The notes under the pieces are model-generated. The model saw only the letters and a list, made by a program, of their open reading frames with translations. It was not told where the DNA came from and did no database searches. Positions 1-17,613 of a stretch of 64,000 nt of DNA are shown piece by piece. How positions within the stretch are numbered: position 1 is the first letter of the stretch; each line of letters begins with the position of its first letter. Source of the DNA: Clostridia bacterium (GTDB lineage Bacteria > Bacillota > Clostridia > DUPQ01); contig JAFGIJ010000125.1 in NCBI GenBank assembly GCA_016929655.1, positions 6,521 to 70,520 on the forward strand, written 5' to 3'. Both the position numbers and the translations under genes were made by a program.

Positions 1-360
1 GACGGAGAATAACCTCTGTCATAAGATTCTTTATAGTAAAAACAGGATTCAATGATGTCATGGGGTCCTGGAAAATCATTGCAATTTCACTTCCCCTGAT
101 TTCCGTCAATTCACTTTCGGTAAGTTTGGTCAAATCTTTCCCATTGAAAATAACAGAACCTTCTTTTATTTTGCCCGGGTCTTCAATAAGGTTGATAATT
201 GACATGGCTGTTACACTTTTACCACTTCCTGACTCTCCCACTATACCGAGGATATCTCCCTCGTTCATTGAAAAGGAAGAACCTCTGACAGCCTGTACTT
301 CTCCCAGGTGAGTAAAAAATGATGTTTTCAGGTTGTTTACTTCAAGTATTTTTCCCATTG
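1..360 (-). CDS. oppD: oligopeptide/dipeptide ABC transporter ATP-binding protein, N-terminal part (gene runs off window start)
   Basis: Minus-strand translation from ATG at 360-358 reads MGKILEVNNLKTSFF...GIVGESGSGKSV (Walker A), typical OppD/DppD N-terminus. RBS GAGGTGA upstream. The + strand ORF 60-311 is a shadow ORF. Confidence 0.8.
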
Positions 361-368
361 AATTCACC

Positions 369-1637
369 TCAACCTTTCCTAAGACGCGGATCCAGTGCAT
401 CCCTGAGTCCATCACCCAGGAAATTGAATGCCAGCATTGTTATTGCAATTGCCGATGCAGGGAAGAATAATTGATAAGGGGATGAAAGTATCCCTGATAA
501 AGCATTGTTTGCTAGTGTACCCCAGGAAGCCATGGGAGCAGAAACACCCAGACCGATGAAACTCATGAAGGCTTCTGTAAATACTGCACTTGGTATCATC
601 ATGGTCATTGAGATTATAATCGGTCCCATTGCATTTGGAATCAAGTGTCTTGTGATAATATTTTTTCTTGCTACGCCAAGGGCTGTTGCAGCCAGAACAA
701 ACTCCTGCTCCTTTAGAGCCAGTATCTGTCCTCTGACCAGCCTTGCCATTCCCACCCAGTAAACCAATCCAATGGCCAATATTATTGTCCAAAGACCCTG
801 ATTCCCAATAAGCACCATCAACAGAATGATTATCAGAACAAGAGGTACCGAATTAATGATGTCAACTATTCGCATCATCACATTGTCAACACGGCCGCCC
901 TCATATCCTGCAATGGCACCATATGTAACTCCTATAATGAAGTTTACCAAGGAAGCCACAAACGCAACGGTGAGAGAGATCCTTGCACCATACATAACCC
1001 TGGTCAGAACATCGCGGCCGAGATTGTCAGAACCGAATGGATATTTTTTATTCCACACTGTCCTGAATTTTTCATTTGTAACAACACCTTTGTATGTGAA
1101 TACATATTTATAATCGAGCTCTTTATCCACAGCTCCGGAATAATCAAGATATATAAGTTCGTCATTATATGTATAAGCCTTTATCAGAGTTTTCTTGGCT
1201 TCATCATTGCGCTTTTTCTGTTCCGCGGGTGAAAGAACTTTTGTTAAATCGGTTCTTTCTTCACTTGTTATTACCGAATCAGTCAATTCAAATATTTCTA
1301 GTCTTTCAATCAGATTTCCCTTTTTATCAACGAGAATCAGACTGTAGTCAGCAGTCAATGTAACATAAGTTTCAGGAGCCACTTCATAAATGGTCAATAT
1401 GGGCGAAAGGTTCTTAAAATCATTGATCTGGTCTGAATATGACATAGTGGTAAACAAGGGTCCGATTATGGCAAAAAGAATAATCAGAATAATACCAACA
1501 AGCCCAACCATGGACATCTTATTCTTTTTAAGACGCCTCCAGGCATCCTGCCAGTAGGTAAGGCTAGGCCGGAATTCTTCGAATTCCTTTTCCTTCTCTG
1601 TAACAAATTTAAATTTACTTTTATCTATGCTACTCAT
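369..1637 (-). CDS. oppC: oligopeptide ABC transporter permease (OppC/DppC family) with long N-terminal extension
   Basis: C-terminal half has the ABC-permease EAA-type region (LGRDVLTRVMYGARISL...) and 6 predicted TM segments. 1-nt overlap with upstream oppB. Confidence 0.85.
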   Translation of the reverse strand: MSSIDKSKFKFVTEKEKEFEEFRPSLTYWQDAWRRLKKNKMSMVGLVGIILIILFAIIGPLFTTMSYSDQINDFKNLSPILTIYEVAPETYVTLTADYSLILVDKKGNLIERLEIFELTDSVITSEERTDLTKVLSPAEQKKRNDEAKKTLIKAYTYNDELIYLDYSGAVDKELDYKYVFTYKGVVTNEKFRTVWNKKYPFGSDNLGRDVLTRVMYGARISLTVAFVASLVNFIIGVTYGAIAGYEGGRVDNVMMRIVDIINSVPLVLIIILLMVLIGNQGLWTIILAIGLVYWVGMARLVRGQILALKEQEFVLAATALGVARKNIITRHLIPNAMGPIIISMTMMIPSAVFTEAFMSFIGLGVSAPMASWGTLANNALSGILSSPYQLFFPASAIAITMLAFNFLGDGLRDALDPRLRKG

Positions 1638-2566
1638 TATTTTGCCCCTTTTTCAAATCTTATACGTGGATCAACCAATGCATATGCCACATCCACCAGC
1701 AAAATCATTATGATGTAGAATGCTGCGTAAAATACCGTTATGCCCATTATAGTAGTATAATCCCGGTTGGTTATACTCTCAACAAAGTAACCCCCCATAC
1801 CGGGAAGCGCAAATATTCTTTCAATAACAAAGGAACCGGTCAGTATTGCAGCAACCATTGGACCCACATAGGTAATTACCGGTATAAGAGCATTTCTGAC
1901 TGCGTGCTTGCCCATGACAACAATCTCCTTGATACCATTTGCCCTTGCAGTTCTTATATAATCCTGGCGAAGAACTTCAAGCATTGAGGAACGGGTCAGC
2001 CTGGTTACAAATGACAGGGAATACCCACTTAGTGCAACTACAGGTCCTATATACCCCAGGGGATTCTGAAGCCCGTAGGTGGGAAGCCACCCCAGCAATC
2101 CGGCAAAGACATATATGATAAGTGTTGCTATTACAAAGCTTGGAACAGTGACCCCCAGGGTTGCCATGAACATGACAAAATAGTCTATGGGTTTGTTCTG
2201 TTTAAGTGCTGATATAATTCCAAATGGGATTCCCAATATAATTATCAGCACTGTTGCCATCAGTCCGATTTTTGCAGAAGTCGGGAACCCTCCTTTTATA
2301 AGATCAATTACATCCTTCCCGATAATGGAAAAAGACGGACCCAGGTCCAGGGTTACAAGCCCTTTCATATAATCCAGATATTGAATGAAAACAGGGTCAT
2401 CCAGATGATATTTCTCATTGAGCCTTACCATTATTGAATCCGGAACAGGTCTTTCTCTTGTAAAAGGCCCACCGGGAATTGAATGCATCATGAAGAAAGT
2501 TATTGTTGCAATAAGCAATATTGTAAGTATCGCAGCCGCAAACCGCTTCAAAAAATACTTCCCCAT
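1637..2566 (-). CDS. oppB: oligopeptide ABC transporter permease (OppB/DppB family)
   Basis: MGKYFLKRF... N-terminus and multi-TM permease typical of OppB. RBS GGAGGGAATTC before ATG. Confidence 0.85.
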   Translation of the reverse strand: MGKYFLKRFAAAILTILLIATITFFMMHSIPGGPFTRERPVPDSIMVRLNEKYHLDDPVFIQYLDYMKGLVTLDLGPSFSIIGKDVIDLIKGGFPTSAKIGLMATVLIIILGIPFGIISALKQNKPIDYFVMFMATLGVTVPSFVIATLIIYVFAGLLGWLPTYGLQNPLGYIGPVVALSGYSLSFVTRLTRSSMLEVLRQDYIRTARANGIKEIVVMGKHAVRNALIPVITYVGPMVAAILTGSFVIERIFALPGMGGYFVESITNRDYTTIMGITVFYAAFYIIMILLVDVAYALVDPRIRFEKGAK

Positions 2567-2651
2567 ACGAATTCCCTCCTACTTTTCCAACACCGGTGAT
2601 GCACCTTTGAAACCCGTATCTGCACAGAAAAACCGGTATTTGTACTGAATG

Positions 2652-2680
2652 ATTATACACTGATATATTATCACATTCAA
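2652..2680 (-). promoter_or_regulatory. sigma-A type promoter for oppBCD (TTGAAT-17-TATAAT on minus strand)
   Basis: Minus-strand reading gives TTGAATgtgataatatatcagtgTATAAT about 85 nt upstream of oppB start. -10 at 2652-2657, -35 at 2675-2680. Confidence 0.55.
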
Positions 2681-2725
2681 TATTTACAATTATTTAACAC
2701 GAAAACCCTTGTTTTTCTGCTTATC

Positions 2726-4207
2726 TCAGTCAACAAGCATTTCAATCCAGTCAAGCACAGCTTCATCAAGCCCTGAATCAAGTTCAATGACCTGATAACC
2801 GTTCTTATGTGCTTCCTTTGGAACAATCCATGCATATAATGTGTCAATTGGCCTGGGATTTTCCGTATAATAGGCTCCGATGAACTCACATCTTTCACCA
2901 TTTATAAAAACTTTTATATCGTTTTCCCCAAGGTCATAAACGTCTTTGAAAGACATAAGCACAAGCCGTGTTTCATTTTTCAACATATTACCGGTATGAA
3001 TTCTGAATCCTGCGAAAATATTCTTCTTAAGTTCAAATGGAAGTATTTCATCAGAAACAACCCCTTCGGGTCTTCTGTCACTGAAAGTAAGCACATGTCT
3101 CCTTCTCTTTCCTTTCATTGATTCCACATCGCCGGTTTCCGTAATGATTTTTTTGTATCCTTCATCGTCATATGCATATCTCTGCATATCCATATAATTG
3201 AAGGTATATATTGCATCCGCTCCCCTGTCTATAAAGGAATGTGCCGCTCCCCTTATGGTTTCTATGCTGTTGAACTGAAATTCATTTTTACATTTTGGGA
3301 AAGCATACTGCCTCAGACATATTTCCAGACACGGAGCTATCAGACATCCTGTTCCTGCTACCTGACGCTTCCATCTTTCGACGGGAATATCCGCCTGACT
3401 GGTATGCCAGAATGGAGATGGCACAAGATTTGCTACATACCCTGCCAGTGCCCAGCCAACACCATCCATTCCCATATCGTAAGCATACTCAGGACTGACA
3501 GGCACCCTGGCTCCTATTTCAATCCTGTGGCCCCTTACTTTTTCATATTCATCGGCCAGTTCCCTTGCTGATTTCATGAATCCATCAAGAACAGTCCGTC
3601 CTTCATCCTCATAGCCGACAGGAAAATGATTGCCAAAACGCATCCAATCCAGTTCTATTCCATCAAAATCATATTTCTCAAAGTACTCCCTAAGTATTCC
3701 AAAATGGTACTCACGGACATCCTCAATCAGGTAATTAAGCTGACGGTCCTCCCATTTTTCATCTCTGTGCATGGCTCTTCTGTAATCCAGGTGCTGCTTA
3801 TAAAACATACTATGCATAGGATCATCCGTATTATCGGCATTGTGAACATCGTTCATCCTCATGCTCATCCATGGAGAAATATTTATTTCCCTAAGCAGTT
3901 TTATCCACTCTGCATAAACATCAATCCCGCGTTCAACCAGAAGCCTGACTGCATTGCTCCAGTTTTTGAAACTCTGCAGTCTTTCCGAAGCAATCATGTC
4001 ATCGGTAACATTATCATAAATAATCTCACCTGCTTTAGTTACATAGCTGGTCTTCTGTGCATTACCGTTCAATAGCATTCTTTCTACATTTGTCCCCCTA
4101 TACTGCATAATAAAGTCCCTGATTTTATCAGGGTCTGCAGCATTCGCTCCACGTTTGAAAAAGTAATGTGAGTTGTCCTCGTTCAACCAAATACCGGCCA
4201 TAATCAA
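2726..4207 (-). CDS. cytoplasmic glycoside-hydrolase-like TIM-barrel protein (GHL/DUF4015-like), function unknown
   Basis: 493 aa with no signal peptide. DGIELDWMRF-type motif resembles the nucleophile region of GHL10-type TIM barrels. First gene downstream of the heptose-related operon, 4-nt overlap with the C-N hydrolase gene. Confidence 0.45.
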   Translation of the reverse strand: MIMAGIWLNEDNSHYFFKRGANAADPDKIRDFIMQYRGTNVERMLLNGNAQKTSYVTKAGEIIYDNVTDDMIASERLQSFKNWSNAVRLLVERGIDVYAEWIKLLREINISPWMSMRMNDVHNADNTDDPMHSMFYKQHLDYRRAMHRDEKWEDRQLNYLIEDVREYHFGILREYFEKYDFDGIELDWMRFGNHFPVGYEDEGRTVLDGFMKSARELADEYEKVRGHRIEIGARVPVSPEYAYDMGMDGVGWALAGYVANLVPSPFWHTSQADIPVERWKRQVAGTGCLIAPCLEICLRQYAFPKCKNEFQFNSIETIRGAAHSFIDRGADAIYTFNYMDMQRYAYDDEGYKKIITETGDVESMKGKRRRHVLTFSDRRPEGVVSDEILPFELKKNIFAGFRIHTGNMLKNETRLVLMSFKDVYDLGENDIKVFINGERCEFIGAYYTENPRPIDTLYAWIVPKEAHKNGYQVIELDSGLDEAVLDWIEMLVD

Positions 4208-4989
4208 TAATCCTTTCTAAGCTCTTTGAGATATGGGAAATCCTTCCTGATTTCGGGAATCGACTCTATGTTCACGTTACAATATAAAATTTCCTCTGTA
4301 TTTTCGCCGGCCCGTGCAATCAGCTCACCTTTTGGGTCAAATACCTTTGAGTCCCCGAAATAAACAACATTGCCTTCCGTGCCCGTTCGGTTGACTCCGG
4401 CCACAAAAACTGTGTTTTCAAGGGCTCTTGCAGGAAGATATATATCCCAGAGATTCCTGTGGGTCGTTGCCCAGGCTGCAGGAACGAAAATAATTTCCGC
4501 ACCCGCCAATGCCAGGTTTCTGCATGTTTCGGGAAAATCCACATCATAGCAGATTATTACTCCGAATTTCCCAAAATATGTTTCATATACCCTGTAGTCA
4601 TGGCTGCCGTATTTAAAATATTTCTGTTCCTTGTCCCAGAGATTGTTTTTATGGTAAACATTCAACAGCCTGCCATTGTTGTCTATGACTGCAGCTGAAT
4701 TATATAAACCATTCTCATCTGTGTATGCCAGAGATGCAATAACATGGATGTTCCCCAGTTTGGCTTCACTTGAAGCCAGTTTAATGGTATCTCCATCTGA
4801 AGAACATGCCATGTCGTAAATTCTGTCACCGATTATATCCAGGTTATAACCAGTTGAAAAAAGTTCCGGAAATACAATGATGTCCGCATGATTTTCAGAA
4901 GCCTGTCTGATCATGCGAACCATCTTCATGTTGTTTTCATAAACATCATTTATAGTGCTGTCAAATTGAGCCAGGGCTATTTTTGCCAT
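4204..4989 (-). CDS. carbon-nitrogen hydrolase (nitrilase superfamily amidohydrolase)
   Basis: MAKIALAQFD...VFPELFSTGY (catalytic Glu), K in the YHKNNLWD region, VIICYD (catalytic Cys). RBS GGGAGA 8 nt before the ATG at 4989. Confidence 0.8.
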   Translation of the reverse strand: MAKIALAQFDSTINDVYENNMKMVRMIRQASENHADIIVFPELFSTGYNLDIIGDRIYDMACSSDGDTIKLASSEAKLGNIHVIASLAYTDENGLYNSAAVIDNNGRLLNVYHKNNLWDKEQKYFKYGSHDYRVYETYFGKFGVIICYDVDFPETCRNLALAGAEIIFVPAAWATTHRNLWDIYLPARALENTVFVAGVNRTGTEGNVVYFGDSKVFDPKGELIARAGENTEEILYCNVNIESIPEIRKDFPYLKELRKDY

Positions 4990-6035
4990 GGTGTTGTCTC
5001 CCTGAACCATCCGTTAAATGTATCAATGACCTCTTCAAGTGAAGCAGTACCGGTCACACCTATTTTCCTTATGGTCACCGCAGCCACCATGTTCCCTATG
5101 AATGCTGCTTCAACTTCATCTGCTCCGGCTGCCAGCGAAGACACAACGGAGGCACTGACCGAATCACCTGCACCGCATATATCATATGGTCTTGGCACAT
5201 CTTCTGTAGGAACCACTACGACTCCTTTTTCCCCAAAGGTCATTATTCCGTTTTTCCCCATGGTAACAAATGTAGGCCTGCCATTTTGTTTATAAAGCCT
5301 GTTCCCGCATTCCTGTACCATTTCATCTTCAGGTTCACTGTTAAGTTCAGGATAAAATGCCCTGCAAGCTTCATAGTTATTACACTTGATAGACATCATC
5401 TTGAACATATGTATCTTCGACCTTGAATCAGCATAAATGATTTTATCTGTATGTTTTGCTGCAAGCCTGATCAGTTTATCCCTTATCCTGTCTGTTATCA
5501 CTCCGCAGTTACTTTCCACCATCTGATCCAGTATTATTACAGCATCCATTTTTTCGAATACATCATCAAGGGTTTCAAGCAATTTACTTTCCAAGACTTC
5601 AGGTGTGTTTTTGAAATTTTTTATATCCAGCCTGTTGCTTTCGACTTCTTCTCCTTTACCATCCCACATCATTGGCTTGACATAAGAAGGGGTAATCATT
5701 TCATCGGTGTCGATTACATAGTCAAATTTCATACCCCTTGCCTTCATTTCGCATCTGAGTTCAAAGCCATTGCCGTCATTTCCGATGAAGGTAACCGGAT
5801 ATACTTCTCCAACACCTAGTTCGCAAAGATTATTGGCTATGGTACCGCCGGCTCCGGGATATTGCCTGGTTTTTACTACCTGATACGCATCGTGGGGTGT
5901 TTCAAGTGATGGTTCATTCAGACGTGTATCAATTCTGAGATACTTGTCCAATACAAAATCACTGACCACTGCTATTCTAAGCTCTCTGAATTTTTTAAAT
6001 AATTCTCTGATTCTTTCTTCTGTCATCTCAATCAC
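4977..6035 (-). CDS. PfkB-family sugar kinase resembling the kinase domain of HldE / HldA (D-glycero-beta-D-manno-heptose-7-phosphate kinase)
   Basis: IAVVSDFVLDKY...PGAGGTIANNLCELG parallels E. coli HldE N-domain VMVVGDVMLDRY...PGGAANVAMNIASLG. C-terminal DICGAGDSVSASVVSSLAAG matches [20 protein letters not shown]. No nucleotidyltransferase domain. Confidence 0.65.
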   Translation of the reverse strand: MIEMTEERIRELFKKFRELRIAVVSDFVLDKYLRIDTRLNEPSLETPHDAYQVVKTRQYPGAGGTIANNLCELGVGEVYPVTFIGNDGNGFELRCEMKARGMKFDYVIDTDEMITPSYVKPMMWDGKGEEVESNRLDIKNFKNTPEVLESKLLETLDDVFEKMDAVIILDQMVESNCGVITDRIRDKLIRLAAKHTDKIIYADSRSKIHMFKMMSIKCNNYEACRAFYPELNSEPEDEMVQECGNRLYKQNGRPTFVTMGKNGIMTFGEKGVVVVPTEDVPRPYDICGAGDSVSASVVSSLAAGADEVEAAFIGNMVAAVTIRKIGVTGTASLEEVIDTFNGWFRETTPWQK

Positions 6036-6990
6036 CGCTCAATAATTTATATGCTAGATTTGCCACTGTATCCTTGTGTTCACCGTTGATATAATAACCT
6101 GTTCCGCCATCGGCAACTGTTCTTGCCAGAATTGTTTTCCATGGTCTGAAATAATATCTTGGATCGGATTTCGGCGGTGCACCGACTGTATTATCCTCAA
6201 TGGGAAGAAGGTCAAAGACCGCTGTTGTAAAATGTGCAATCTTCTCATTGTTTTGATGTGCTACATTCCTTGCCATTGAGAGTGCCTTAAGGTATACTTC
6301 CGGCCCGGTCACTGCAGAACCGAAATTCATGAATACACCGTTTTCCAAATTCTGAATTGATTTTGCATAAATCAGGAAGTCCGTATAAGAGGCCTTTCCG
6401 AGCATTTCTCCATTACAATTGGGATGCTGATGTATGAAATCGAGTCCAATGCCCACATGGACTGTTACGGGAATCTGATTCCTGTAACCTGCTGCAAGAA
6501 GTGAATACTGTTTATGAGGGAATTTTCCCTCCTCAATTGCCATTCCGAGTATTTCACCATGCCCCAAACCCCGTTGTGCTCCTTCGTTGATAAAATCATT
6601 TATCAAACCGGACTGTTTCCACAGACCAAACTGACCCTCACTTATATATTTTGCAACACTCTCTGTAGTGGCACCGATCATGGAAAATTCGAAATCATGT
6701 ATTGCCCCTGCTCCATTGGTGGCAAAATGTGTAATCCATCCTTCTTCCATCAGCCTGATGAGCCATGGCGTAGCACCTGCCCTTATAACATGGGCACCCA
6801 TCATCATCATAACTGTGGCATTGTTTTTCCTGGCTTTCCTTATTGCTTCTACCAAAGCATCAAGTTTTTCATTTCCATAGGCAGCCGGCTTTTTATATGG
6901 GTCCTGCATGACACTTAAATCAAGGTCATGTTCCCTTTCTTCCAGATTTTTCAATAGAAGTTTGCTTCTGTCAAATTTCCCAAAGGGCAT
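6028..6990 (-). CDS. conserved hypothetical protein, 320 aa, unassigned fold (weak resemblance to deoxyhypusine-synthase-like Rossmann proteins)
   Basis: Motifs MMMMGAHVIRAG, ITHFATNGAGAIHDFE and IPVTVHVGIGLDF. Translationally coupled on both sides (overlaps the kinase gene, 1-nt gap to the HAD gene). Confidence 0.3.
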   Translation of the reverse strand: MPFGKFDRSKLLLKNLEEREHDLDLSVMQDPYKKPAAYGNEKLDALVEAIRKARKNNATVMMMMGAHVIRAGATPWLIRLMEEGWITHFATNGAGAIHDFEFSMIGATTESVAKYISEGQFGLWKQSGLINDFINEGAQRGLGHGEILGMAIEEGKFPHKQYSLLAAGYRNQIPVTVHVGIGLDFIHQHPNCNGEMLGKASYTDFLIYAKSIQNLENGVFMNFGSAVTGPEVYLKALSMARNVAHQNNEKIAHFTTAVFDLLPIEDNTVGAPPKSDPRYYFRPWKTILARTVADGGTGYYINGEHKDTVANLAYKLLSGD

Positions 6991-6991
6991 G

Positions 6992-7792
6992 TCAACCTCC
7001 GAACAAATAGTTTTCCAGTGCCTCTAATTCTGTAAAATCTGCAATAATAACATCAGCCCCGGCTTTAATCAACCTCTGTCTCTTCCATTCATCTATGCCC
7101 TCCATGCGTTCTTCATCAGTAGCAACTCCGATGGCAATCCCGCCGACTTCCTTTATATTTTCTATTTCAACATATCCATCACCGAATCCGGCAAGACTTG
7201 AACCATGAAGGTCATTCATTTCAATGATTCTCTGTATAACCATAGCCTTTGAAAATAATTTATATTCATCCCGGGCACCATAGATACGGTCTTTGAAATA
7301 TCTGTCCAGTTTAAGGAGAGCAACTTCTTCCTTCACATACATTTCATCTGTTCCGCTTGCCAGATATATGTCCACACCATGGTCAATCAGACATTCAATG
7401 ATACCTACCGAACCCGGAACAAGAAACTCTGCAGGTTGAATCGTACCATCTGCAAGACCTTTTCTCCTGTATTCTATTTTCTCCAGAAGTCTTCTGTGAT
7501 ATTCGTTCTTATAAATAAGCGGATCCAAAGATTTACCGCCTCTTTTAATGACTTCCTCATTGAGTCTGATGCACTGGTAAATTGTCTGCTTTCCCGTTAA
7601 AAAATCGATGAATTCCCTGGCACATGAGTTTTCGTCTTCAAGTGTTCCTGCACCCGGGGTGCCCATGAGCACCTCTGTAAAATATGGTGTCATTATCTCC
7701 TGCCAGCCTTTTCTGATAAGACTCAGGGTACCATCAAAATCAAAAACCACCGAATGCAGATTGACTGCAGCTGTCTTGCTTATAAATTCCAT
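6992..7792 (-). CDS. HAD-superfamily phosphatase (capped, subfamily I-like)
   Basis: Motif I FDFDGTL, motif II LASGTDE, motif IV GFGDGYVE. RBS GAGGTG 7 nt before the ATG at 7792. Not GmhB-like in sequence. Confidence 0.7.
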   Translation of the reverse strand: MEFISKTAAVNLHSVVFDFDGTLSLIRKGWQEIMTPYFTEVLMGTPGAGTLEDENSCAREFIDFLTGKQTIYQCIRLNEEVIKRGGKSLDPLIYKNEYHRRLLEKIEYRRKGLADGTIQPAEFLVPGSVGIIECLIDHGVDIYLASGTDEMYVKEEVALLKLDRYFKDRIYGARDEYKLFSKAMVIQRIIEMNDLHGSSLAGFGDGYVEIENIKEVGGIAIGVATDEERMEGIDEWKRQRLIKAGADVIIADFTELEALENYLFGG

Positions 7793-7796
7793 TCCT

Positions 7797-8366
7797 CTAC
7801 ACCTCGTTGCCAATCTCTTCACGCAATGTACATATTACACAATGTTCCCAGAGCATATGTATGTCTTCTATTTCCTCCATACCATCAACGGGAGCTATAA
7901 CCGACAGATCACAAAGCTCCTTCAGTTTACCGCCATCCCTGCCTGTCAGTGCTGCAGTTCTGATGCCATGTTCCCTGGCATATTCACAGGCTTTGACCAC
8001 ATTGGGACTGTTTCCGCTTCCACTTATCACAATAAGCAGATCTCCCGGCCTTGCATAATTTTTCAACTGTTCCTGAAAAATTACGGAATAATCATAGTCA
8101 TTTGCCAATGCTGTTATAACAGGCACCTGGTCAACCAGGGAAAATGCCCTGAACCTCTTTGGATTACCGGGTGAAAGTCCTTTGACCAAATCATTTGTGA
8201 AGTGAGAAGCTGTAGCTGCACTTCCACCGTTTCCGGCAAAAAATACAGCCTTGTCCTCTTTTCGCGCTTCCATGAGCATGCCGCATAATCCTTCCACAGC
8301 TTCATATGGTGTTTTTCTTATGGCAGCAGATTGTTTTTCCACATATGCCTTTATAAATTCAAGCAT
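7797..8366 (-). CDS. gmhA: SIS-domain phosphoheptose isomerase (GmhA-like; DiaA-like alternative not excluded)
   Basis: FFAGNGGSAATASHF and LLIVISGSGNSPNVVKACEYAREHGIRTAALTGRDGG align closely with E. coli GmhA motifs ([49 protein letters not shown]). Confidence 0.65.
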   Translation of the reverse strand: MLEFIKAYVEKQSAAIRKTPYEAVEGLCGMLMEARKEDKAVFFAGNGGSAATASHFTNDLVKGLSPGNPKRFRAFSLVDQVPVITALANDYDYSVIFQEQLKNYARPGDLLIVISGSGNSPNVVKACEYAREHGIRTAALTGRDGGKLKELCDLSVIAPVDGMEEIEDIHMLWEHCVICTLREEIGNEV

Positions 8367-8895
8367 CAGCGTTCCATTCCCTTCTTAATAAACCATAGAG
8401 AAGCAGGTTGTGCCTCTTCCCGTCCCTAAGAACCGCTTCCCTATATACACCTTCTTTAACAAAACCAATTTTTTCATATAACTTTATTGCAGCTTTATTG
8501 TAATCTATAACATTGAGCTGCAGCCTATCCAGATTCAGTTCATTGAATGCAAAATTCACAGCCATTGACAATGCTTCATATCCAAAACCTTTTCCACGAT
8601 GGCTTAGATTTCCAAAACCGATTGAAATCCATGCAAAACGATTTGACTGGGATATGCCGTCTATTTCCAATAGACCGATCATCTCACCGGTTTCAATCAA
8701 TCTTATAGCAAAAGGAACAAAGGTATCGGTTCCTCCTGTTTCATATATTTTTTTCAGTTGTTCCCTGGTTTTCGGTACTGCCGGATGGAAATCATAATAA
8801 CGCAGAAAATCCGTATTCTCATACCAACCCGCAAGGATATCCACATCCTTTTCCTGCAATGCCCCCAGACTTAAATTCTGACTCTTCAGTAACAT
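8359..8895 (-). CDS. GNAT family N-acetyltransferase (RimJ/RimL-like)
   Basis: 178 aa with the GNAT acetyl-CoA motif region (HRGKGFGYEALSMAVNFAF). First gene of the operon. Confidence 0.8.
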   Translation of the reverse strand: MLLKSQNLSLGALQEKDVDILAGWYENTDFLRYYDFHPAVPKTREQLKKIYETGGTDTFVPFAIRLIETGEMIGLLEIDGISQSNRFAWISIGFGNLSHRGKGFGYEALSMAVNFAFNELNLDRLQLNVIDYNKAAIKLYEKIGFVKEGVYREAVLRDGKRHNLLLYGLLRREWNADA

Positions 8896-8916
8896 AACCC
8901 CCCCTGAATCATGAAT

Positions 8917-8945
8917 ATTATACAGTAGTAAAACAACCCGTACAA
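8917..8945 (-). promoter_or_regulatory. sigma-A type promoter of the GNAT-gmhA-HAD-unknown-kinase-CNhydrolase-GHL operon (TTGTAC-17-TATAAT)
   Basis: Minus-strand reading: TTGTACgggttgttttactactgTATAAT, then a G-rich RBS and the ATG at 8895. Confidence 0.55.
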
Positions 8946-8961
8946 TAGAATGCCCATCTAT

Positions 8962-9951
8962 TCATGCCAGTCTCCCAAGCTGACCTGGCAGAACCTCAAA
9001 ATCAATGCTGCCATTATCCATGAATCTTCCTATTTCTTCAACAACAAGTGCACCGATCCTTTTCCTTCCATTTGTGACTGCACCTGCGATATGAGGTGTC
9101 AGAATGACATTGGGTATCAGCCTGAGTTCATTGAGTTCCGAAGGAGGTTCCGGATCGGTTACATCAATACAAGCAGAAATTCTTCCTTTTCGCAATTCAG
9201 TGATAAGGTCAGCTTCATTTATCAAAGTTCCGCGGGCAGTGTTTATCAAAATCGCACCATCCTTCATCATGGAAAGATTTTCAGCGTTTATCATATGCCT
9301 GGTAACAGGAAGTGAAGGAGCATGAATTGAAACCACATCACATACTGACATTAAATTCAGTAGACTCGATTTTTCAACTCCCATGGCAAGACAGCCGGCA
9401 TCATCCACTGTAGGATCGTACAAAAGGATTTCAACTTCAAAATTCTTCATTAGCCTGATATAATGCCTGCCCGCATGACCTGCACCGATTACACCTATTT
9501 TTAAATCATAAATATCCCTCACCGTATGGTTCTGACTGTTCCATCCCCCCATAGAAGTGAGTGTGTTGAGGTTGAATATATTTTTCAGCGATGCCAATGT
9601 CATTCCAAGTGCCGTTTCTGCCACCCCTTTTCCAAGTGCAGATGCTGCTGATGTAACTCTGATTCCTCTGGCCCATAGGTCATCAGTAACCAACCCTTTA
9701 ACTGACCCCGCCCCATGAACAACTAGTCCAAGACCGGGAGCTTCTCTTAGGATATCTTCCGTCAATGCCGGGCAATTCCATGATGTTATCGCAATATCTG
9801 CATCTTTTACCAGAAATGCAGCTTCTTCTGCAGTGGGACCCTCTGCTCTTTGATTTACTGAAAGCTCTCCAAATGCCTTCAATTGCCTGAAATGACCTTC
9901 AGTGAATATCTGATCCTGTCTTTCTTTGTTTGCAAGAATTGCTATTTTCAT
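8962..9951 (-). CDS. D-isomer-specific 2-hydroxyacid dehydrogenase (NAD-binding)
   Basis: GVIGAGHAGRHYIRL Rossmann motif and catalytic-region signature NTARGTLINEADL...LTPHIAG. Confidence 0.8.
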   Translation of the reverse strand: MKIAILANKERQDQIFTEGHFRQLKAFGELSVNQRAEGPTAEEAAFLVKDADIAITSWNCPALTEDILREAPGLGLVVHGAGSVKGLVTDDLWARGIRVTSAASALGKGVAETALGMTLASLKNIFNLNTLTSMGGWNSQNHTVRDIYDLKIGVIGAGHAGRHYIRLMKNFEVEILLYDPTVDDAGCLAMGVEKSSLLNLMSVCDVVSIHAPSLPVTRHMINAENLSMMKDGAILINTARGTLINEADLITELRKGRISACIDVTDPEPPSELNELRLIPNVILTPHIAGAVTNGRKRIGALVVEEIGRFMDNGSIDFEVLPGQLGRLA

Positions 9952-9955
9952 TTAA

Positions 9956-10678
9956 TCAACCAATCCCTTCCAGTTTGTCCATTGTTCTGAATTTTCGGTC
10001 AAATACCATTTCAATATATGCTGATGAAATGTTTTTTAGTTTAACGGCTGATTCCTTTGGAATTTCCAGCGAAAATAAAGCCCTGCCTTCTGATTCAGAT
10101 ATTTGTTCAATTGCCTGTCTTACATATACATCTGTCTCAATGCCCTGTATACAGCATGCAAACCCTCCTGAAGCCAATGAGAAATTTGTGCTTCTTGTTT
10201 TTTCCCCGCATACTGCACATTCATATAAAGCCGGAGCAAAACCCGATATAACCGCCGCCCTAAACTCATATATTCCCCTTAGAAGAATCTGGTTTACATT
10301 GCCTCTGGTCATTACATGAAGAGAATTCAGCAAAAACCGGATCATTTCTTCATCAGGGTGCTTTTCCATGATTATAAAAGAAGCGATATCAATAAAGTGG
10401 CAGGCAAGATAATACTTTTCAATGTCTTCAGCGAGCCCCGAATAATCATAAAGCCTTGTAGCTCCAGTAAGCACATAACGACCTTTGCTTTCTACAACCT
10501 CAAAGTACCCACAGAAAAACATACCCGATGCAAATGCAAGCTTTGCACCTTTTTTTCTTACACCTTTTGCCTTGATGGTGGCGGATCCCTCCTCAATTGT
10601 CAGCACAGTCAGCAACCTGTCACTCTCAAGGTAATCATTGGCTCTGACCACTATGCCCGTGAGCTTTTTATCCTTCAT
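9956..10678 (-). CDS. recO: DNA repair protein RecO
   Basis: 240 aa directly downstream of era (conserved era-recO linkage). C-terminal Cys cluster CAVCGEK typical of RecO. Confidence 0.8.
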   Translation of the reverse strand: MKDKKLTGIVVRANDYLESDRLLTVLTIEEGSATIKAKGVRKKGAKLAFASGMFFCGYFEVVESKGRYVLTGATRLYDYSGLAEDIEKYYLACHFIDIASFIIMEKHPDEEMIRFLLNSLHVMTRGNVNQILLRGIYEFRAAVISGFAPALYECAVCGEKTRSTNFSLASGGFACCIQGIETDVYVRQAIEQISESEGRALFSLEIPKESAVKLKNISSAYIEMVFDRKFRTMDKLEGIG

Positions 10679-12455: not shown

Positions 12456-14580
12456 TTTTTATATTCTCCTTTGGTTCAGGATAATCAATTCTTTTATGGA
12501 AATAGCCACCGAATACTCTCAGAAATGCATTCGATATGTCATCGAAATCCTTCAGAGTGAGGTCGCAAAGGTCAAATTGTCCATCGTCAAGCTTGTTTTT
12601 TATCGCTTTTCTTATTATACCCTCTACCTCTCCCCTTGACAGGTCTTTTCCTGCCCTTACTATTGCCTCTACAGAATCTGCAAGCATGACAACCGCAGAT
12701 TCCTTGGATTTCGGCCGCTGGCCTTCATATCTGAATTCATCAGGATCCACATTCGATCCATACTGCTCGACCGCCTTGTTATAGAAATACCTGACCTGGG
12801 TGGTTCCATGATGCTCATTGATAAAATCTCTTATTGCATGGGGCAGCTTATATTTTTTTGCAATTTCATCGCCTTCTTTGGTATGACTTGTAATAACCAG
12901 CTTGCTTAATTCCGGTTTCATCTTGTTGTGGGGATTGTCCTTGCCCTGGTTCTCAGCAAAATATCCCGGTCGGCTCATTTTACCGACATCATGGTAATAT
13001 GCCCCAACTCGTGCAAGAAGGCCGTTTGCACCTATTTCGTTTGCTGCTTCCTCTGCCAGATTGCCCACCATAAGGCTATGGTGATAGGTTCCCGGTGCCT
13101 CCAGCAAAAGTTTCTTGAGCAGAGGTTGATTGGGATTTGAAAGTTCGAGAAGCTTGAATGGTGTAATTATGTTGAAAACTGATTCAAACAAAGGCATAAG
13201 ACCGATTACCAGAATAACTGAAATAACTCCTCCGGCAGTCAACGCCAGATAATCCATTACAATTTCAGTAGGATTGCTGTTGTGTGCCATTGTCAGTAAA
13301 AATAGTATAAGGGAGGACGCCAGACCCAATATCAACCCTGATGACAAAAGACGCATCCTGGAACTTAGCTTTCTTGCAAAGTATGCTGACATTGTTCCCG
13401 CACTTATAAGTATAGCAAGATATATTGTATCTGTTTTATAAATGAAGCTGATGAATACTGCGGTAACTGCTCCTACGATTATTGCAATTTTTTCATCTAC
13501 CAATATTGAAACCAGCATCGGCAGTACAAAAACCGGCAGATACAGGTAATATGTTCCCGGGACAAGATAAACAATGGCAAACAACATTACCTCGATTACA
13601 CATATTATAAGGATGTGTCTTTTTGTATAACTCTTTTTCCCCGAAAACAGCATCTTGAACATTATTACCGGAACCAAAAGAATAAGCAGCAGTCCGGAAA
13701 GCCCGATAAAAACTATTATATTAAAGGAAGCTCCCCCCATCAGGTTCATTTCAGTGAGTAATCTGATTGTCTGGGCATCAGCCTTTTCACCCTGGCGGAT
13801 GATCAAATCGCCTTCTTCAATTACAATAGGATTATTTTCGATGACATCTGCCCTTGCAGCTTCCCTCGCCGCTTCTGTTTCTTCTATATTTACTATACTG
13901 TTTATCCTAAGAAACGCAGCTGCAATATTATATGAGAATGTCCTGAGTCCGCTGTTGATGATGGCATATTCTGTTTCATCCTTGAATTCTTCAAGCAAAT
14001 CCTCCCTGTTGGCATCAAATACATTCCTGTTTTGTATGGATGAAAATGCCTCTGTTACTATTGACTTAAAATTATTGTACTCAGCTTCACTTATTCCATC
14101 CAGCAACGCCCGAACCTGCTCATATTTGATTGTTATTCCATATGTCATGCAGATGCTGATATATGAACTGATTCTGTTGTCAAGATACTTGGCAAAATCT
14201 CCGCCCTGAATCTTGTATTGCATTATCTCGCTTCTGTATGTATCTGTCCTGTCAAAGAAAATTGAAATGTCTTCAAATGAAGAAAAGGTTGCATCATGCC
14301 TGCTCACCAGGACCGGCTCAGTTTCAGCAGCAGCTTTTTCGGCAAGGGCCGTTGTTCCTGTTACATCGTAAAACTTGAAGGGTGCATAAACATCCTTGTT
14401 GGCATAACCCCCTTCGTCAAGTGTCTTCATAAAAGGAATTACCTTGAAATAGGCAGTGAATGCAAGTATTGCCAGGGTAATAAAAATAATAAGGGCAGCC
14501 AGTATATTATTTTTATTGAAAAATGAACCGATTTTCTTCATGTCAACCCTTCTTCCCGCTTCTGTTTTCATATTTGTCAT
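12424..14580 (-). CDS. pgpH: 7TM-receptor-HD (PgpH-type) membrane phosphohydrolase
   Basis: Multi-TM central region plus C-terminal HD domain (YYHDVGK). Conserved position between phoH and ybeY. The real start may be the internal MKKIGSF near 14541. Confidence 0.85.
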   Translation of the reverse strand: MTNMKTEAGRRVDMKKIGSFFNKNNILAALIIFITLAILAFTAYFKVIPFMKTLDEGGYANKDVYAPFKFYDVTGTTALAEKAAAETEPVLVSRHDATFSSFEDISIFFDRTDTYRSEIMQYKIQGGDFAKYLDNRISSYISICMTYGITIKYEQVRALLDGISEAEYNNFKSIVTEAFSSIQNRNVFDANREDLLEEFKDETEYAIINSGLRTFSYNIAAAFLRINSIVNIEETEAAREAARADVIENNPIVIEEGDLIIRQGEKADAQTIRLLTEMNLMGGASFNIIVFIGLSGLLLILLVPVIMFKMLFSGKKSYTKRHILIICVIEVMLFAIVYLVPGTYYLYLPVFVLPMLVSILVDEKIAIIVGAVTAVFISFIYKTDTIYLAILISAGTMSAYFARKLSSRMRLLSSGLILGLASSLILFLLTMAHNSNPTEIVMDYLALTAGGVISVILVIGLMPLFESVFNIITPFKLLELSNPNQPLLKKLLLEAPGTYHHSLMVGNLAEEAANEIGANGLLARVGAYYHDVGKMSRPGYFAENQGKDNPHNKMKPELSKLVITSHTKEGDEIAKKYKLPHAIRDFINEHHGTTQVRYFYNKAVEQYGSNVDPDEFRYEGQRPKSKESAVVMLADSVEAIVRAGKDLSRGEVEGIIRKAIKNKLDDGQFDLCDLTLKDFDDISNAFLRVFGGYFHKRIDYPEPKENIKNEPVNGDISG

Positions 14581-15505
14581 AAGCCTTTATAATCTTCTGT
14601 ACAAGCTCGTGACGCACAACATCTCTTTCTGTAAGATATGAAAAACCAACACCTTTAATATTCTTCAATATCTTTTCTGATTCAAGAAGGCCGGATTTTT
14701 TATCCCCAGGCAGGTCAATCTGTGTTATGTCTCCGGTAACAACCACCTTGGAATAGAAGCCCATCCTTGTAAGGAACATCTTCATCTGTTCCTTGGTAGT
14801 ATTCTGGGCTTCATCAAGTATTATAAATGAATCATCCAGAGTTCGTCCCCTCATATAGGCAAGGGGTACTATTTCTATCAACCCTTTTTCCTTGCATCTT
14901 TGGAAAGCCTCGGCCCCCATTATTTCGAAAAGTGAATCGTACAGCGGACGCAGATATGGATCAATTTTACTTTGAAGGTCTCCTGGTAAAAAGCCAAGTT
15001 TTTCTCCCGCTTCAACAGCCGGTCTGGTCAGGATAATGCGTTTGACCTGGTCTGATCTGAATGCAGTCACTGCCATTGCTACAGCCAGGAACGTCTTGCC
15101 GGTTCCTGCAGGCCCGATACCGAATACTATATCATTGTTCTTGATGTTATCAACATACTGCTTTTGGCCATATGTCTTGGATTTGATTGGCTTGCCATTT
15201 GCGTTGAGACAAACATAATCTGCAGGATACTCCCCGCTTTCAAAGGCACCTTCCCTTAACAATGTTGCAATATAAATGGAATTCTGCCTTGTGATTGCAT
15301 CGCCGTCACGGGCAATTCTCATAAGCTTTTCAATGACTTCAGTTGTCTTGAGGACAGCATCCTCTTCCCCGATTATTTTTATATCAGTTCCCCTTGGTAC
15401 AATATTAACACCCATTATTTCTTCAATGGCCTTTACATTTTCATCCTGGCTGCCGAACAGATTCATAACATGGTCAATGTTATCGAAACCAATTGTTTTT
15501 TCCAT
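14543..15505 (-). CDS. phoH: PhoH-like ATPase
   Basis: GPAGTGKTFLAVAMAV Walker A, KH-like N-terminus. Confidence 0.9.
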   Translation of the reverse strand: MEKTIGFDNIDHVMNLFGSQDENVKAIEEIMGVNIVPRGTDIKIIGEEDAVLKTTEVIEKLMRIARDGDAITRQNSIYIATLLREGAFESGEYPADYVCLNANGKPIKSKTYGQKQYVDNIKNNDIVFGIGPAGTGKTFLAVAMAVTAFRSDQVKRIILTRPAVEAGEKLGFLPGDLQSKIDPYLRPLYDSLFEIMGAEAFQRCKEKGLIEIVPLAYMRGRTLDDSFIILDEAQNTTKEQMKMFLTRMGFYSKVVVTGDITQIDLPGDKKSGLLESEKILKNIKGVGFSYLTERDVVRHELVQKIIKAYDKYENRSGKKG

Positions 15506-15782
15506 CCAATGCTTCCCTTCTCCTGCATCTTTACCGCCTAGACATTATATTATATATACCAGACAATGGCAATTAAGCTAACTCTATGCAAAAGGCACCT
15601 CGTCGGTGCCTTTGCTGATATCAGGGGGGTTGGGTCATTTGTCATTTGTGATGATATTCTCATCTGTTTCTTATAATTATTTGACGCAGATAAATGAATA
15701 TTGTTCCGCATGCCAAATAAATGATATTTCATCCATCTGAATGATGTATAATTATTTCTGCAAAAACAAAGGGGGAACTGCA

Positions 15783-16802
15783 ATGAATAAAAAGCAACGG
15801 GTCATCAACTCACTGAACCATAAAGAATCGGATATTATACCCTACGAAGTAGGTTTCACGATCCCACTCAGGGAAAAACTCGTCAGGTATTTCAATGATC
15901 CGGATTTTGATTCAAAAATTGAAAATCATATAAAGACCATTGGTTATTCCAAGGGGCACCGTGAAATAATCGGCAAGCCTGGGCATTTCGTGGACATGTG
16001 GGGAGTTGAGTGGAACCGCAGCGGACCCGACAAGGATATTGGAATCGTTGAGAATAAAATTCTTCAGGGAAATGACCCGACTGCTTTTGATTATCCGGAT
16101 ATAGATTTTGATGTCCTTGGTTCAGATATAGAAAAATTCATTGCTGACAATCCCGACACCTTCAATATTTTCTGTATAGGCTTTTCCCTGTTTGAAAGAG
16201 CATGGACACTCCGCGGAATGGAAAACCTTCTCATGGACATGATAATGGAACCTAACTTTGTCCATGATCTGCTGGACAGAATATGTGATTTCAATGTTAA
16301 ACTCGTCAAATTTGCATCACAGTTTGATATAGACGGAATCTATTTCGGAGATGACTGGGGACAGCAAAGAGGTCTCATCATGGGGCCGGTCATGTGGAGG
16401 GAATTCATAAAACCGCGGCTGAAACGAGCTTATTCAGAAGTTAAAAAAGGCAGGAAATATGTTCTTCAGCACTCCTGCGGGGATATCCTTGAGGTTTTTC
16501 CCGATATTATAGAATGCGGTCTTGATTGTTACCAGACATTCCAGCCGGAAATATATGACATTGAATATTGCAAGGCTGAGTTCGGCAATGACCTTTCATA
16601 CTGGGGTGCAATCAGCACCCAGGGTATGCTACCTTTTGAAACGCCCGAAGGCGTCAAACGGGAAATGACCCGGATCATGAGAATACTTGGAAAAGGCGGT
16701 GGCTATATAGCCTCTCCAACCCATGGAGTACCCTATGACGTTCCTGAGGAAAATATAAAGGCAATGCTTGACGTATTTGCCCATCAGGATAAATATTTAT
16801 AG
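15783..16802 (+). CDS. uroporphyrinogen decarboxylase (URO-D) family protein / MtaA-like methyltransferase family
   Basis: About 340 aa. RBS AAGGGGGA before the ATG at 15783. URO-D fold signatures (MWREFIKPR, HSCGD). Confidence 0.6.
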   Translation: MNKKQRVINSLNHKESDIIPYEVGFTIPLREKLVRYFNDPDFDSKIENHIKTIGYSKGHREIIGKPGHFVDMWGVEWNRSGPDKDIGIVENKILQGNDPTAFDYPDIDFDVLGSDIEKFIADNPDTFNIFCIGFSLFERAWTLRGMENLLMDMIMEPNFVHDLLDRICDFNVKLVKFASQFDIDGIYFGDDWGQQRGLIMGPVMWREFIKPRLKRAYSEVKKGRKYVLQHSCGDILEVFPDIIECGLDCYQTFQPEIYDIEYCKAEFGNDLSYWGAISTQGMLPFETPEGVKREMTRIMRILGKGGGYIASPTHGVPYDVPEENIKAMLDVFAHQDKYL

Positions 16803-16817
16803 GAAGCTTGGATATAA

Positions 16818-17435
16818 ATGGACTACAACGAATATGAAGAAAATGAAATAATTAAAATGGCCAACAGCGGGGATGACAGAGCCATGGAGTTTATCATGCA
16901 TCGTTATGGAAATCTTGCGAAAGCCAAGGCAAGAGCCTATTTTCTTATCGGTGCTGATAATGAAGATATCATACAGGAAGGTATGATAGGTCTGTATAAG
17001 GCGGTCAGGGATTTCAATCCAGAAAGAACCCCTATGTTCTACCCCTTTGCAGAACTTTGTATTACAAGGCAGATAATCACTGCAATAAAGACTGCTACAA
17101 GAAAAAAACACACCCCTTTGAATACATATATATCTTTAAGCAAGCCTGTCGGTACCGAGGGAGATGCCGACAGGACACTTGCTGACACGCTTTTTCAGTA
17201 CGGAAACAGGAATCCGGAGGAACTGCTGATCAGCAAGGAAAATACAAGGGACATTATGTCGGAGATAAAGAACTCGTTGAGCAAGCTTGAAAACAGGGTG
17301 CTTGATCTCTATCTCAAAGGTGAGGATTACAGGGAAATATCCAAGAAACTCGGAAGAACACCAAAATCAATGGACAATGCACTGCAACGCATAAAAAAGA
17401 AGATATCAGTGATCATTGAAAAGTATAAGGTTTAG
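16818..17435 (+). CDS. sigH: RNA polymerase sigma-H factor
   Basis: 205 aa sigma-70 regions 2 and 4 (DIIQEGMIGLYKAVRDF; C-terminal HTH YREISKKLGRTPKSMDNALQRIKKK). Followed by tRNA-Thr as in many Firmicutes. Confidence 0.8.
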   Translation: MDYNEYEENEIIKMANSGDDRAMEFIMHRYGNLAKAKARAYFLIGADNEDIIQEGMIGLYKAVRDFNPERTPMFYPFAELCITRQIITAIKTATRKKHTPLNTYISLSKPVGTEGDADRTLADTLFQYGNRNPEELLISKENTRDIMSEIKNSLSKLENRVLDLYLKGEDYREISKKLGRTPKSMDNALQRIKKKISVIIEKYKV

Positions 17436-17490
17436 AATTTTATTATAGACTAAGAAAAAATGTTGTGTTAAAATACTATTCGCTGATTAT

Positions 17491-17566
<76 letters not shown>

Positions 17567-17571
17567 GACAA

Positions 17572-17613
17572 AGTCCTGAGGTAACTTTTAAAGTAATTTC
17601 AGGACTTTTTTAT
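17572..17613 (+). terminator. rho-independent terminator after tRNA-Thr
   Basis: GTCCTGA...TCAGGAC stem followed by TTTTTTATT. Confidence 0.75.

Follow-up and report, generated by a model that had tools for sequence, protein, structure and literature searches.

The window analysed here is a stretch of 64,000 nucleotides from a contig of a Clostridia bacterium (JAFGIJ010000125.1), and the system of interest is a run of seven genes on its minus strand between positions 2,726 and 8,895. A preliminary description, drawn from the letters alone, had read these genes as a translationally coupled operon in a Firmicutes-like host, with enzymes resembling those of heptose-phosphate metabolism, a carbon-nitrogen (C-N) hydrolase, a GNAT acetyltransferase, an unassigned protein and a GHL TIM barrel, and had recognised no described pathway in them. 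The locus is well supported as a lineage-specific elaboration of a widespread four-enzyme module, made up of a GmhA-like SIS protein, a PfkB protein like the HldE kinase, a capped HAD protein and an enzyme of the GSU2086 family. What is new is an uncharacterised variant of the heptose-phosphate pathway, centred on an enzyme without described function; no published description of the module was found in the literature. From first to last, the seven genes are as follows.

8359-8895, minus strand: GNAT N-acetyltransferase (178 aa; Pfam Acetyltransf_3)
7797-8366, minus strand: GmhA-like SIS_2 sugar-phosphate isomerase (189 aa; Asp at the H-x-x-x-E position)
6992-7792, minus strand: HAD-superfamily phosphatase or mutase (266 aa; motif DFDGT; not GmhB-like)
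6028-6990, minus strand: GSU2086-family protein (NF052581; 320 aa; fold of deoxyhypusine synthase (DHS) / LOR-SDH; putative dinucleotide-dependent enzyme)
4977-6026, minus strand: PfkB kinase, like the HldE/HldA heptose-7-phosphate kinase domain (349 aa; 352 aa from a GTG at 6035)
4204-4989, minus strand: C-N hydrolase, a nitrilase-superfamily amidase (261 aa; Pfam 183 bits)
2726-4201 (alternative 4207), minus strand: hydrolase of family GH156, an inverting exo-sialidase family (491 aa; cytoplasmic)

Adjacent genes share 4-13 nt or leave a gap of 1-4 nt, and start/stop overlaps tie the PfkB, amidase and GH156 genes together. The same starts are found in independent gene calls, for the same contig in GCA_016938765.1 (a Clostridia metagenome-assembled genome, MAG) as well as for relatives, and each preferred start is preceded by a purine-rich motif like a ribosome-binding site. 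Together with the open reading frames (ORFs), these observations bear out the tight co-directional packing that had been described, and the Firmicutes-like host proves to be a Clostridia MAG. The Pfam assignments expected for five of the proteins (SIS_2, PfkB, CN_hydrolase, HAD and GNAT) were all confirmed.

The GSU2086-family protein and its heptose-like partners

The protein that had been left unassigned is in fact the most conserved member of the operon. It belongs to the GSU2086 family, scoring 388 bits against the cut-off of 250 for NF052581 (residues 5-313 on 1-299 of 301), and NCBIfam classes this family as uncharacterised. Its fold is that of DHS and of LOR/SDH-type ornithine cyclodeaminase. 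Sequence likeness to these enzymes is confined to residues 41-108 (about 65 residues); the motifs G-x-x-V-I-x-x-G and H-D-(I/F)-E are common to all of them, and the Pfam scores are 29.7 against a threshold of 27 for PF21570 and 19 against 27 for PF01916 (DS). DHS uses NAD+. For LOR/SDH-type ornithine cyclodeaminase, the recently reported cofactor is a nickel-pincer adenine dinucleotide held without a covalent bond (cited in PMC13524815). Given these two cofactors, a bound dinucleotide and hydride-shuttle chemistry are a reasonable inference, by analogy, for the GSU2086 enzyme as well, and its Lys285 is a candidate counterpart of the catalytic Lys of DHS.

Conservation within the family is extreme, with identities of 65-68% from one phylum to another and a mean column identity of 78%; across Clostridia, Spirochaetes, Planctomycetes, Synergistetes, Actinomycetota and Chloroflexota the range is 60-68%. 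A pattern scan of species-representative genomes, with one genome per species, placed relatives in at least 581 species genomes among the 600 pattern matches listed, and an exhaustive profile search (E <= 1e-30) gave 615 clusters at 50% identity. Two GSU2086 paralogues occur in some genomes, either in tandem or as one fused protein of 679 aa (L015:4069-5067; L068:9302-11313; P0242), an arrangement that recalls the pair of catalytic and regulatory paralogues of trypanosome deoxyhypusine synthase.

The three partner enzymes were compared with the heptose-pathway enzymes to which they had been likened. As had been supposed, the SIS protein stands nearer to GmhA than to DiaA (121 against 77 bits in NCBIfam; 100 bits for PDB 1X92 against 73 bits). 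It nevertheless scores below the GmhA equivalog cut-offs, with 121 against 276 bits for NF010546 and 118 against 209 bits for TIGR00441. The phosphate-binding S-x-S-G-x-S region (GSGNS) and the distal histidine (motif E-D-x-H) are retained, and H-x-x-x-D replaces the H-x-x-x-E of GmhA in all GSU2086-linked SIS proteins, in Clostridia, Treponema, Nitrospina and Nitrospiraceae alike. That glutamate of GmhA is reportedly the catalytic base and a zinc ligand. The PfkB protein, which carries a GAGD motif, likewise groups as had been proposed with the HldE kinase domain and not with ribokinase (129 against 48 bits). Its best match is rfaE_dom_I over the full length (13-337 on 2-311 of 315), at 128.8 bits against a cut-off of 345, and Burkholderia HldA (PDB 4E84) is matched with just 33 bits. 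For the HAD protein no GmhB model appears among the NCBIfam matches, in agreement with the earlier view that it is not GmhB-like, and its sole PDB relative is a putative phosphatase at an E-value of 0.011. Judged by sequence, the three are paralogues of heptose-pathway enzymes and not equivalogs. As the scores lie under the equivalog cut-offs and the SIS protein has Asp for Glu, the substrate may be sedoheptulose-7-phosphate or something related.

The conservation of the module was studied in 80 loci that are the closest relatives of the query, hence Clostridia-biased and mostly monoderm, and gene contents were counted in 52 loci having at least 4 kb of flank on both sides. Within 4.5 kb of the GSU2086 gene, a HAD gene is found in 49/52 loci, a PfkB gene in 47/52 and a SIS gene in 46/52, and all three together in 44/52; a ROK gene is also nearby in 32. 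In about 9-12 loci, a Clostridia/Oscillospiraceae subset without a separate SIS gene, the SIS and HAD proteins form a single chain of approximately 460 aa (for instance L081:8616-9998, L083:8613-9998, L058:7335-8720 and L066:1521-3020). Family representatives add the fusions HAD-GSU2086, SIS-GSU2086, GSU2086-SIS, GSU2086-PfkB and PfkB-HAD-GSU2086, a fusion of GSU2086 with a nucleotidyltransferase of the heptose type, and ARMT1-phosphatase-nucleotidyltransferase-GSU2086. The GSU2086 domain is therefore found fused to all four activities of the nucleoside diphosphate (NDP)-heptose relay, which argues for a fifth activity and rules out that it stands in for one of the four.

The absence of a heptose nucleotidyltransferase, remarked on earlier for the visible genes, holds for the window and the 80 related loci. 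A phmmer search with two domains of the HldC/rfaE_dom_II type found no nucleotidyltransferase in the window or in loci L001-L085, and a hidden nucleotidyltransferase or ARMT1-type phosphatase was likewise discarded for the same set. Planctomycete homologues of GSU2086 are solitary genes, and their context is therefore uninformative. The preliminary description had allowed that the block might turn out to be a widespread and already characterised locus. The four-gene core is indeed widespread but uncharacterised, so that only half of this expectation holds. Most genomes with the module have no GH156, amidase or GNAT gene beside it, and the oligopeptide-type (Opp) transport genes, like those for the amidase and the GNAT, are absent from most module loci.

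Two genomic settings of the module

The typical order in monoderms and Treponema begins with LacI, a xylF/ChvE-like binding protein, an ATP-binding cassette (ABC) ATPase, a permease, an IolG-like dehydrogenase and an IolE-like TIM-barrel enzyme, and continues with a NagC-like ROK regulator, HAD, GSU2086, PfkB, a ROK kinase and SIS. Other monoderm neighbours include an FGGY kinase, a Zn-dependent dehydrogenase, a GatY-like aldolase, a mannitol-1-P dehydrogenase-like enzyme, a GalA beta-galactosidase and a fucose/sulfoquinovose-isomerase-like protein. Parts of an ABC importer lie within 9 kb of the module in 32/52 loci, and the annotated neighbours of monoderm-type loci included no glycosyltransferase. 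This setting looks like one of uptake and catabolism.

A different picture is offered by clusters from diderms, namely a Deltaproteobacterium (L091:8001-17551), Nitrospina watsonii (L092:2574-15462) and a Nitrospiraceae MAG (L093:4379-16617). Here the GSU2086 gene precedes, or is fused to, an HldC-like nucleotidyltransferase gene, followed by a kinase, a GmhA-like SIS protein and a glycosyltransferase of family GT2. Nearby are two to three radical SAM/SPASM genes, a B12-radical SAM gene, a pair like PDH-E1 alpha/beta, a NUDIX gene, and PMT_2 or LPG_synthase_TM. The diderm kinase carries a nucleotidyltransferase-like domain at its N-terminus, reversing the order of HldE (L092:9515-11047, L093:9478-11013, L091:9551-11104). 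That domain lacks the second His of H-x-G-H (HPGI) and may therefore be inactive, whereas the adjacent standalone enzyme retains GCFDLMHPGH; the idea of two active nucleotidyltransferases per cluster was rejected on this account. These clusters look like biosynthesis of an unusual envelope sugar. The preliminary description had left two options, (a) biosynthesis of a heptose-1-phosphate-derived product and (b) catabolism of an imported heptose-containing compound; the context favours (b) in monoderms, while the diderm clusters look biosynthetic.

A biosynthetic role in the window's host, too, is the main alternative and deserves weight; we consider it possible though doubtful. The SIS protein would convert a ketose-7-phosphate to the aldose-7-phosphate, PfkB would form the beta-1,7-bisphosphate and HAD the beta-1-phosphate, which the GSU2086 enzyme would then modify through, say, a nucleotide-independent epimerisation, an oxidation or an amination. 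The product could be a metabolite, a compatible solute or a precursor of a glycoconjugate, with an amino group tailored by the GNAT and the amidase. The pairing of a kinase with a phosphatase follows this logic, and GmhA and the HldE kinase domain are the top family matches. The diderm GSU2086 genes (Deltaproteobacteria, Nitrospina and Nitrospiraceae) stand beside genes for an HldC-like nucleotidyltransferase, an HldE-like kinase, a GmhA-like SIS protein and GT2; the fusions of GSU2086 with a nucleotidyltransferase point the same way, as does PseH as the best named relative of the GNAT. Geobacter GSU2086, the namesake of the family, is a gene sitting between hldE and gmhA; in a Geobacter transposon-sequencing (Tn-seq) table its transposon mutant has an electrode-growth defect of -3.2, similar in size to the -3.1 and -3.7 of these hldE/gmhA neighbours. 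That table is the only place in the literature where GSU2086 turned up; searches that paired DHS-like proteins with heptose, that asked for a catabolic or salvage route for heptose, or that combined DHS with phosphoheptose isomerase gave nothing. Against biosynthesis it counts that neither the window nor the 80 loci, most of them monoderm, have a nucleotidyltransferase or glycosyltransferase close to the module, that importers, repressors and glycoside hydrolases are its neighbours there, and that GH156 and the C-N hydrolase are degradative enzymes.

GH156, amidase, GNAT and the flanking genes

The last gene, previously taken for a GHL TIM barrel, in fact encodes a full-length homologue of GH156 exo-sialidases. 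Its product aligns with EnvSia156 (PDB 6RZD) at a HMMER E-value of 2e-117, residues 4-492 on 7-500, with about 40% identity. EnvSia156 is the founding inverting exo-sialidase of GH156, with Asp14 as base, His134 as acid, the carboxylate triad Arg129/Arg202/Asn346, a buried Arg246 and an aromatic +1 pocket (PMC6811678). The residues D14, H134, R129, R202, R246 and N346 and the aromatic +1 pocket are conserved in the window's GH156 and 24 close relatives, so that by its sequence the protein is a member of the family with intact active-site residues. It has no signal peptide, nor would there be space for one ahead of the catalytic Asp at residue 11, and the enzyme is therefore cytoplasmic. It falls in a small clade with at least 48% identity inside and about 40% to other GH156 members. 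An altered specificity was considered, as the glycerol-tail contacts Tyr20/Tyr135 are Phe/Asn here, and was dropped: Phe/Asn is the family majority, and positions that vary across the family allow no inference on specificity.

The C-N hydrolase matches PF00795 over residues 10-255 on 1-255 of 256, and the Glu-Lys-Cys triad is present in the motifs FPELF, HKNN and IICYD of its translation. It reaches no NCBIfam equivalog cut-off and has AguB-like matches. The best named relatives of the GNAT in NCBIfam, PseH and SpeG, are both under cut-off. The genes for GH156 and the C-N hydrolase are confined to the closest lineages, where the two invariably follow the PfkB gene side by side. The GH156 clade always adjoins the amidase and the module, and does so in three sub-lineages whose outer neighbours differ. 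In the window's lineage the dehydrogenase and GNAT genes lie at one end and Opp at the other. A second (L089) has a ROK gene in front and, downstream, genes for a GFO/IDH/MocA oxidoreductase, an AP_endonuc_2 enzyme and an SSF symporter with a small accessory subunit (14271-19740). By analogy at family level only, this symporter may be linked to the SiaT sialic-acid transporters and the oxidoreductase to the anhydro-sialic-acid oxidoreductase NanOx. The third (L088, 1394-4785), whose GH156 is 48% identical to that of the window, has a GNAT, a 622-aa protein and another SBP_bac_5 gene. Its module lacks a GSU2086 gene, with only a 150-nt gap holding a 49-codon ORF in its place; the 622-aa protein was considered as a divergent GSU2086 and rejected, having neither a Pfam match nor an hhalign match.

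Around the seven genes lie the following features, of which the protein-coding ones are uncertain members of the system.

8962-9951, minus strand: D-2-hydroxyacid dehydrogenase (329 aa), directly upstream
8917-8945, minus strand: candidate promoter, TTGTAC (8945-8940), 17-nt spacer, TATAAT (8922-8917)
1637-2566, minus strand: oppB
369-1637, minus strand: oppC
within 1-2566, minus strand: oppD, of which the window start leaves only the 5' part

The candidate promoter had been called clean. Its TATAAT is perfect, but TTGTAC agrees with TTGACA at only 3/6 positions and is weaker than claimed. The site is absent from those reported by a consensus promoter scan of the region, and the number of promoter-like sites across 1-10200 is at chance level (32 against 28.7 +/- 5.6); the only support for it is its position in the 66-nt gap between the end of the upstream dehydrogenase gene and the GNAT gene. 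Downstream, oppB begins 159 nt after the GH156 gene, and this gap holds a TTGAAT-17-TATAAT site (10/12) at 2652-2680 on the minus strand, so that separate transcription of the Opp genes is possible. No terminator-like site was found between the seven genes and either the upstream dehydrogenase or the downstream Opp genes. The contig continues beyond the window start with oppF and an OppA-like SBP_bac_5 gene. The seven genes themselves thus stand as described, while the co-directional block is longer than had been stated, running from the dehydrogenase through the seven genes and oppBCDF to the SBP_bac_5 gene, past the window start. This order of dehydrogenase, seven genes and Opp is kept in relatives of the window's lineage, and the adjacency of dehydrogenase and Opp is found only in that lineage, where the whole region from recO to ECF is syntenic.

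The last observation bears on whether the seven genes serve one pathway at all. They may be co-transcribed without doing so, the four-gene module and the GH156-amidase pair being separate units and the GNAT, dehydrogenase and Opp genes co-inherited neighbours. The occurrence of the module without GH156, amidase and GNAT in most genomes agrees with such a mosaic, as do the synteny just mentioned and the promoter-like site before Opp. The start/stop overlaps joining PfkB, amidase and GH156 argue against it, together with the restriction of the GH156 clade to the side of the module in three sub-lineages of different surroundings and the recurrence of the GNAT beside the module in L011 and L088; we regard it as improbable for the seven genes as a whole. 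For Opp, an import of sialic acid of the SatABCD type was rejected, as the binding protein is OppA/MppA/DppE-like (279-327 bits) and scores only 46 bits for SatA. Opp may be an unrelated neighbouring peptide importer.

If Opp does belong to the system, the amidase invites another comparison. A sugar-amine or sugar-amino-acid conjugate (an Amadori compound, opine-like compound or glycopeptide) could be imported by Opp and degraded, with the amidase, PfkB kinase and SIS deglycase acting as FraE/FraD/FraB in Salmonella or FrlD/FrlB in E. coli; the DHS-like enzyme would use NAD-dependent imine chemistry to cleave or transfer a secondary amine, and the amine set free would be detoxified by the GNAT. 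The triad of amidase, PfkB and SIS is present, the binding protein is OppA/MppA/DppE-like, and the GNAT and C-N hydrolase have SpeG-like and AguB-like matches. DHS and ornithine cyclodeaminase, relatives of GSU2086 in fold, act on amines via transient oxidation. The SIS protein, however, is of the single-domain GmhA-like type and not the double-SIS type of FrlB/FraB/GlmS; PfkB scores 25 bits on the fructoselysine kinase model against 129 on the HldE kinase domain; most module loci lack amidase, GNAT and Opp; and GH156 is left unexplained. Degradation of such a conjugate is the least probable of the explanations weighed here.

Elsewhere in the window, the 20 other ORFs scanned with Pfam are housekeeping genes or lack a match. 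Pfam gives no match at E <= 1e-6 for four long ORFs of 371-477 aa, at 19458-20795 (minus), 22692-24077 (plus), 24080-25195 (plus) and 56632-58065 (minus), the last adjoining a DUF58 gene (58035-59186). The product of 52087-53256 (minus) matches with 500 bits the HcyBio family, a sulfur-incorporation enzyme of homocysteine biosynthesis typical of methanogens and some anaerobes; its gene lies near genes of the amino-acid kinase and aldehyde dehydrogenase families, probably proB/proA.

A proposed scavenging route and its relation to known systems

The reading we favour, with a rough probability of 0.4, is the cytoplasmic scavenging of an imported glycoside by way of heptose-like phosphates. A small glycoside bearing a 2-keto-3-deoxy acid sugar would be imported, possibly by the adjacent Opp-type system, and in sister lineages by the nearby SSF symporter or another SBP_bac_5 system. 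GH156 would then take off the acid sugar and uncap the glycoside, and the amidase and GNAT would reshape an N-acyl or amide group. The PfkB kinase would phosphorylate the remaining sugar or its phosphate, and the HAD enzyme would move or remove a phosphate via an intermediate of the 1,7-bisphosphate type, as in the chemistry of GmhA/HldE/GmhB. With a tightly bound NAD-type dinucleotide, the GSU2086 enzyme could catalyse a redox-neutral hydride-shuttle step such as an epimerisation, and the SIS protein would convert between the aldose phosphate and a ketose phosphate, either sedoheptulose-7-phosphate or something analogous, that enters central metabolism.

Several points weigh against this proposal. 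The pairing of a kinase with a phosphatase is typical of biosynthesis, from sedoheptulose-7-phosphate to heptose-1-phosphate, and would be wasteful in catabolism unless the HAD protein is a mutase; the operon of the window has neither a ROK kinase nor a regulator; and the same trio of enzymes lies in clearly biosynthetic clusters in diderms. The binding protein is OppA/MppA/DppE-like and not SatA-like, and Opp is possibly unrelated, with a promoter of its own. No nanA, nanE, nagA or nagB was found by Pfam among the 20 other window ORFs, and GH156 would release an acid sugar not obviously accepted by any enzyme of the module. The substrates of all these enzymes are only predicted, and the sampling of 80 loci leans towards Clostridia, these being the closest relatives of the query.

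A broader proposal, which we put forward tentatively and with some doubt, concerns the family as a whole. GSU2086 proteins would form a new class of dinucleotide-dependent sugar-phosphate enzymes, catalysing a hitherto unrecognised fifth step of a heptose-type pathway paralogous to the GmhA/HldE/GmhB/HldC relay, with which diderms build an envelope sugar and monoderms scavenge it. A candidate reaction would act on a heptose phosphate, either as a nucleotide-independent epimerisation or as a redox isomerisation. The scavengers would be monoderm anaerobes of gut and sediment (Christensenellales, Oscillospirales, Treponema and this Clostridia lineage), here after uncapping by a cytoplasmic GH156. 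If this is true, commensals free of lipopolysaccharide (LPS) would make or consume molecules of the heptose-1,7-bisphosphate type. ALPK1 senses heptose phosphates and NDP-heptoses as agonists of innate immunity, and a 2024 commentary by the authors of a survey of NDP-heptose enzymes named roles outside LPS as an open question and advised looking at conserved neighbours. The locus points to a concrete and testable answer to why LPS-free organisms carry heptose-pathway genes. The GSU2086 enzyme is among the most conserved proteins of the neighbourhood and is found in hundreds of species, including Clostridia of human and animal guts, yet no Pfam family is devoted to it and it has no assigned function. 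Its cofactor merits interest in its own right, since its relatives use NAD or the nickel-pincer dinucleotide. A cytoplasmic GH156 beside sugar-phosphate enzymes suggests a substrate or route unlike the known use of sialic acid.

Comparison with known systems delimits what is shared. In nan clusters with SatABCD, as here, a hydrolase of a sialidase family stands beside an ABC importer with an SBP_bac_5 protein, SatA being of this type too; unlike in those clusters, nanA, nanK, nanE, nagA and nagB are missing from the locus and from the 20 other ORFs scanned, and the binding protein is OppA-like (327 bits against 46 for SatA). The fructosamine loci fraBDAE of Salmonella and frlABCD of E. coli bring together an amidase, a PfkB kinase, a SIS enzyme and an importer in one operon, as in the window. 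Their SIS and PfkB proteins belong to different subfamilies, however, and they have no HAD protein, GSU2086-family protein or glycoside hydrolase.

With EnvSia156, the GH156 of the window shares its full length and the conserved catalytic, carboxylate and +1 pocket residues, but it belongs to a separate clade and is cytoplasmic, without a signal peptide. Other GH156 genes neighbour fucosidase, hexosaminidase or GH141 genes, whereas this one is found with an amidase and a sugar-phosphate module. The GSU2086 protein has N-terminal motifs in common with DHS and with LOR/SDH-type ornithine cyclodeaminase (the C-terminal domain of AgrE/ArgZ, TIGR00300), enzymes that hold an NAD-type dinucleotide and shuttle hydride. 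Its likeness to them extends over about 65 residues, with the DS Pfam score below threshold, and its partners are sugar-phosphate enzymes and not enzymes of polyamine or arginine metabolism.

The closest parallel is with the enzymes of ADP-/NDP-heptose synthesis (GmhA, HldE or HldA with HldC, and GmhB), to whose isomerase, kinase and phosphatase the SIS, PfkB and phosphatase of the locus are homologous or analogous; in diderm relatives of the module an HldC-like nucleotidyltransferase is adjacent or fused. The locus differs from this relay in that all its scores are under the equivalog cut-offs, the SIS protein has Asp for the catalytic Glu of GmhA, the phosphatase is a capped HAD protein without a GmhB match, and no nucleotidyltransferase is present. 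It also differs in its monoderm host without LPS and its catabolic genomic setting, and in the invariantly linked fifth enzyme, of the GSU2086 family, that it adds to the other activities.

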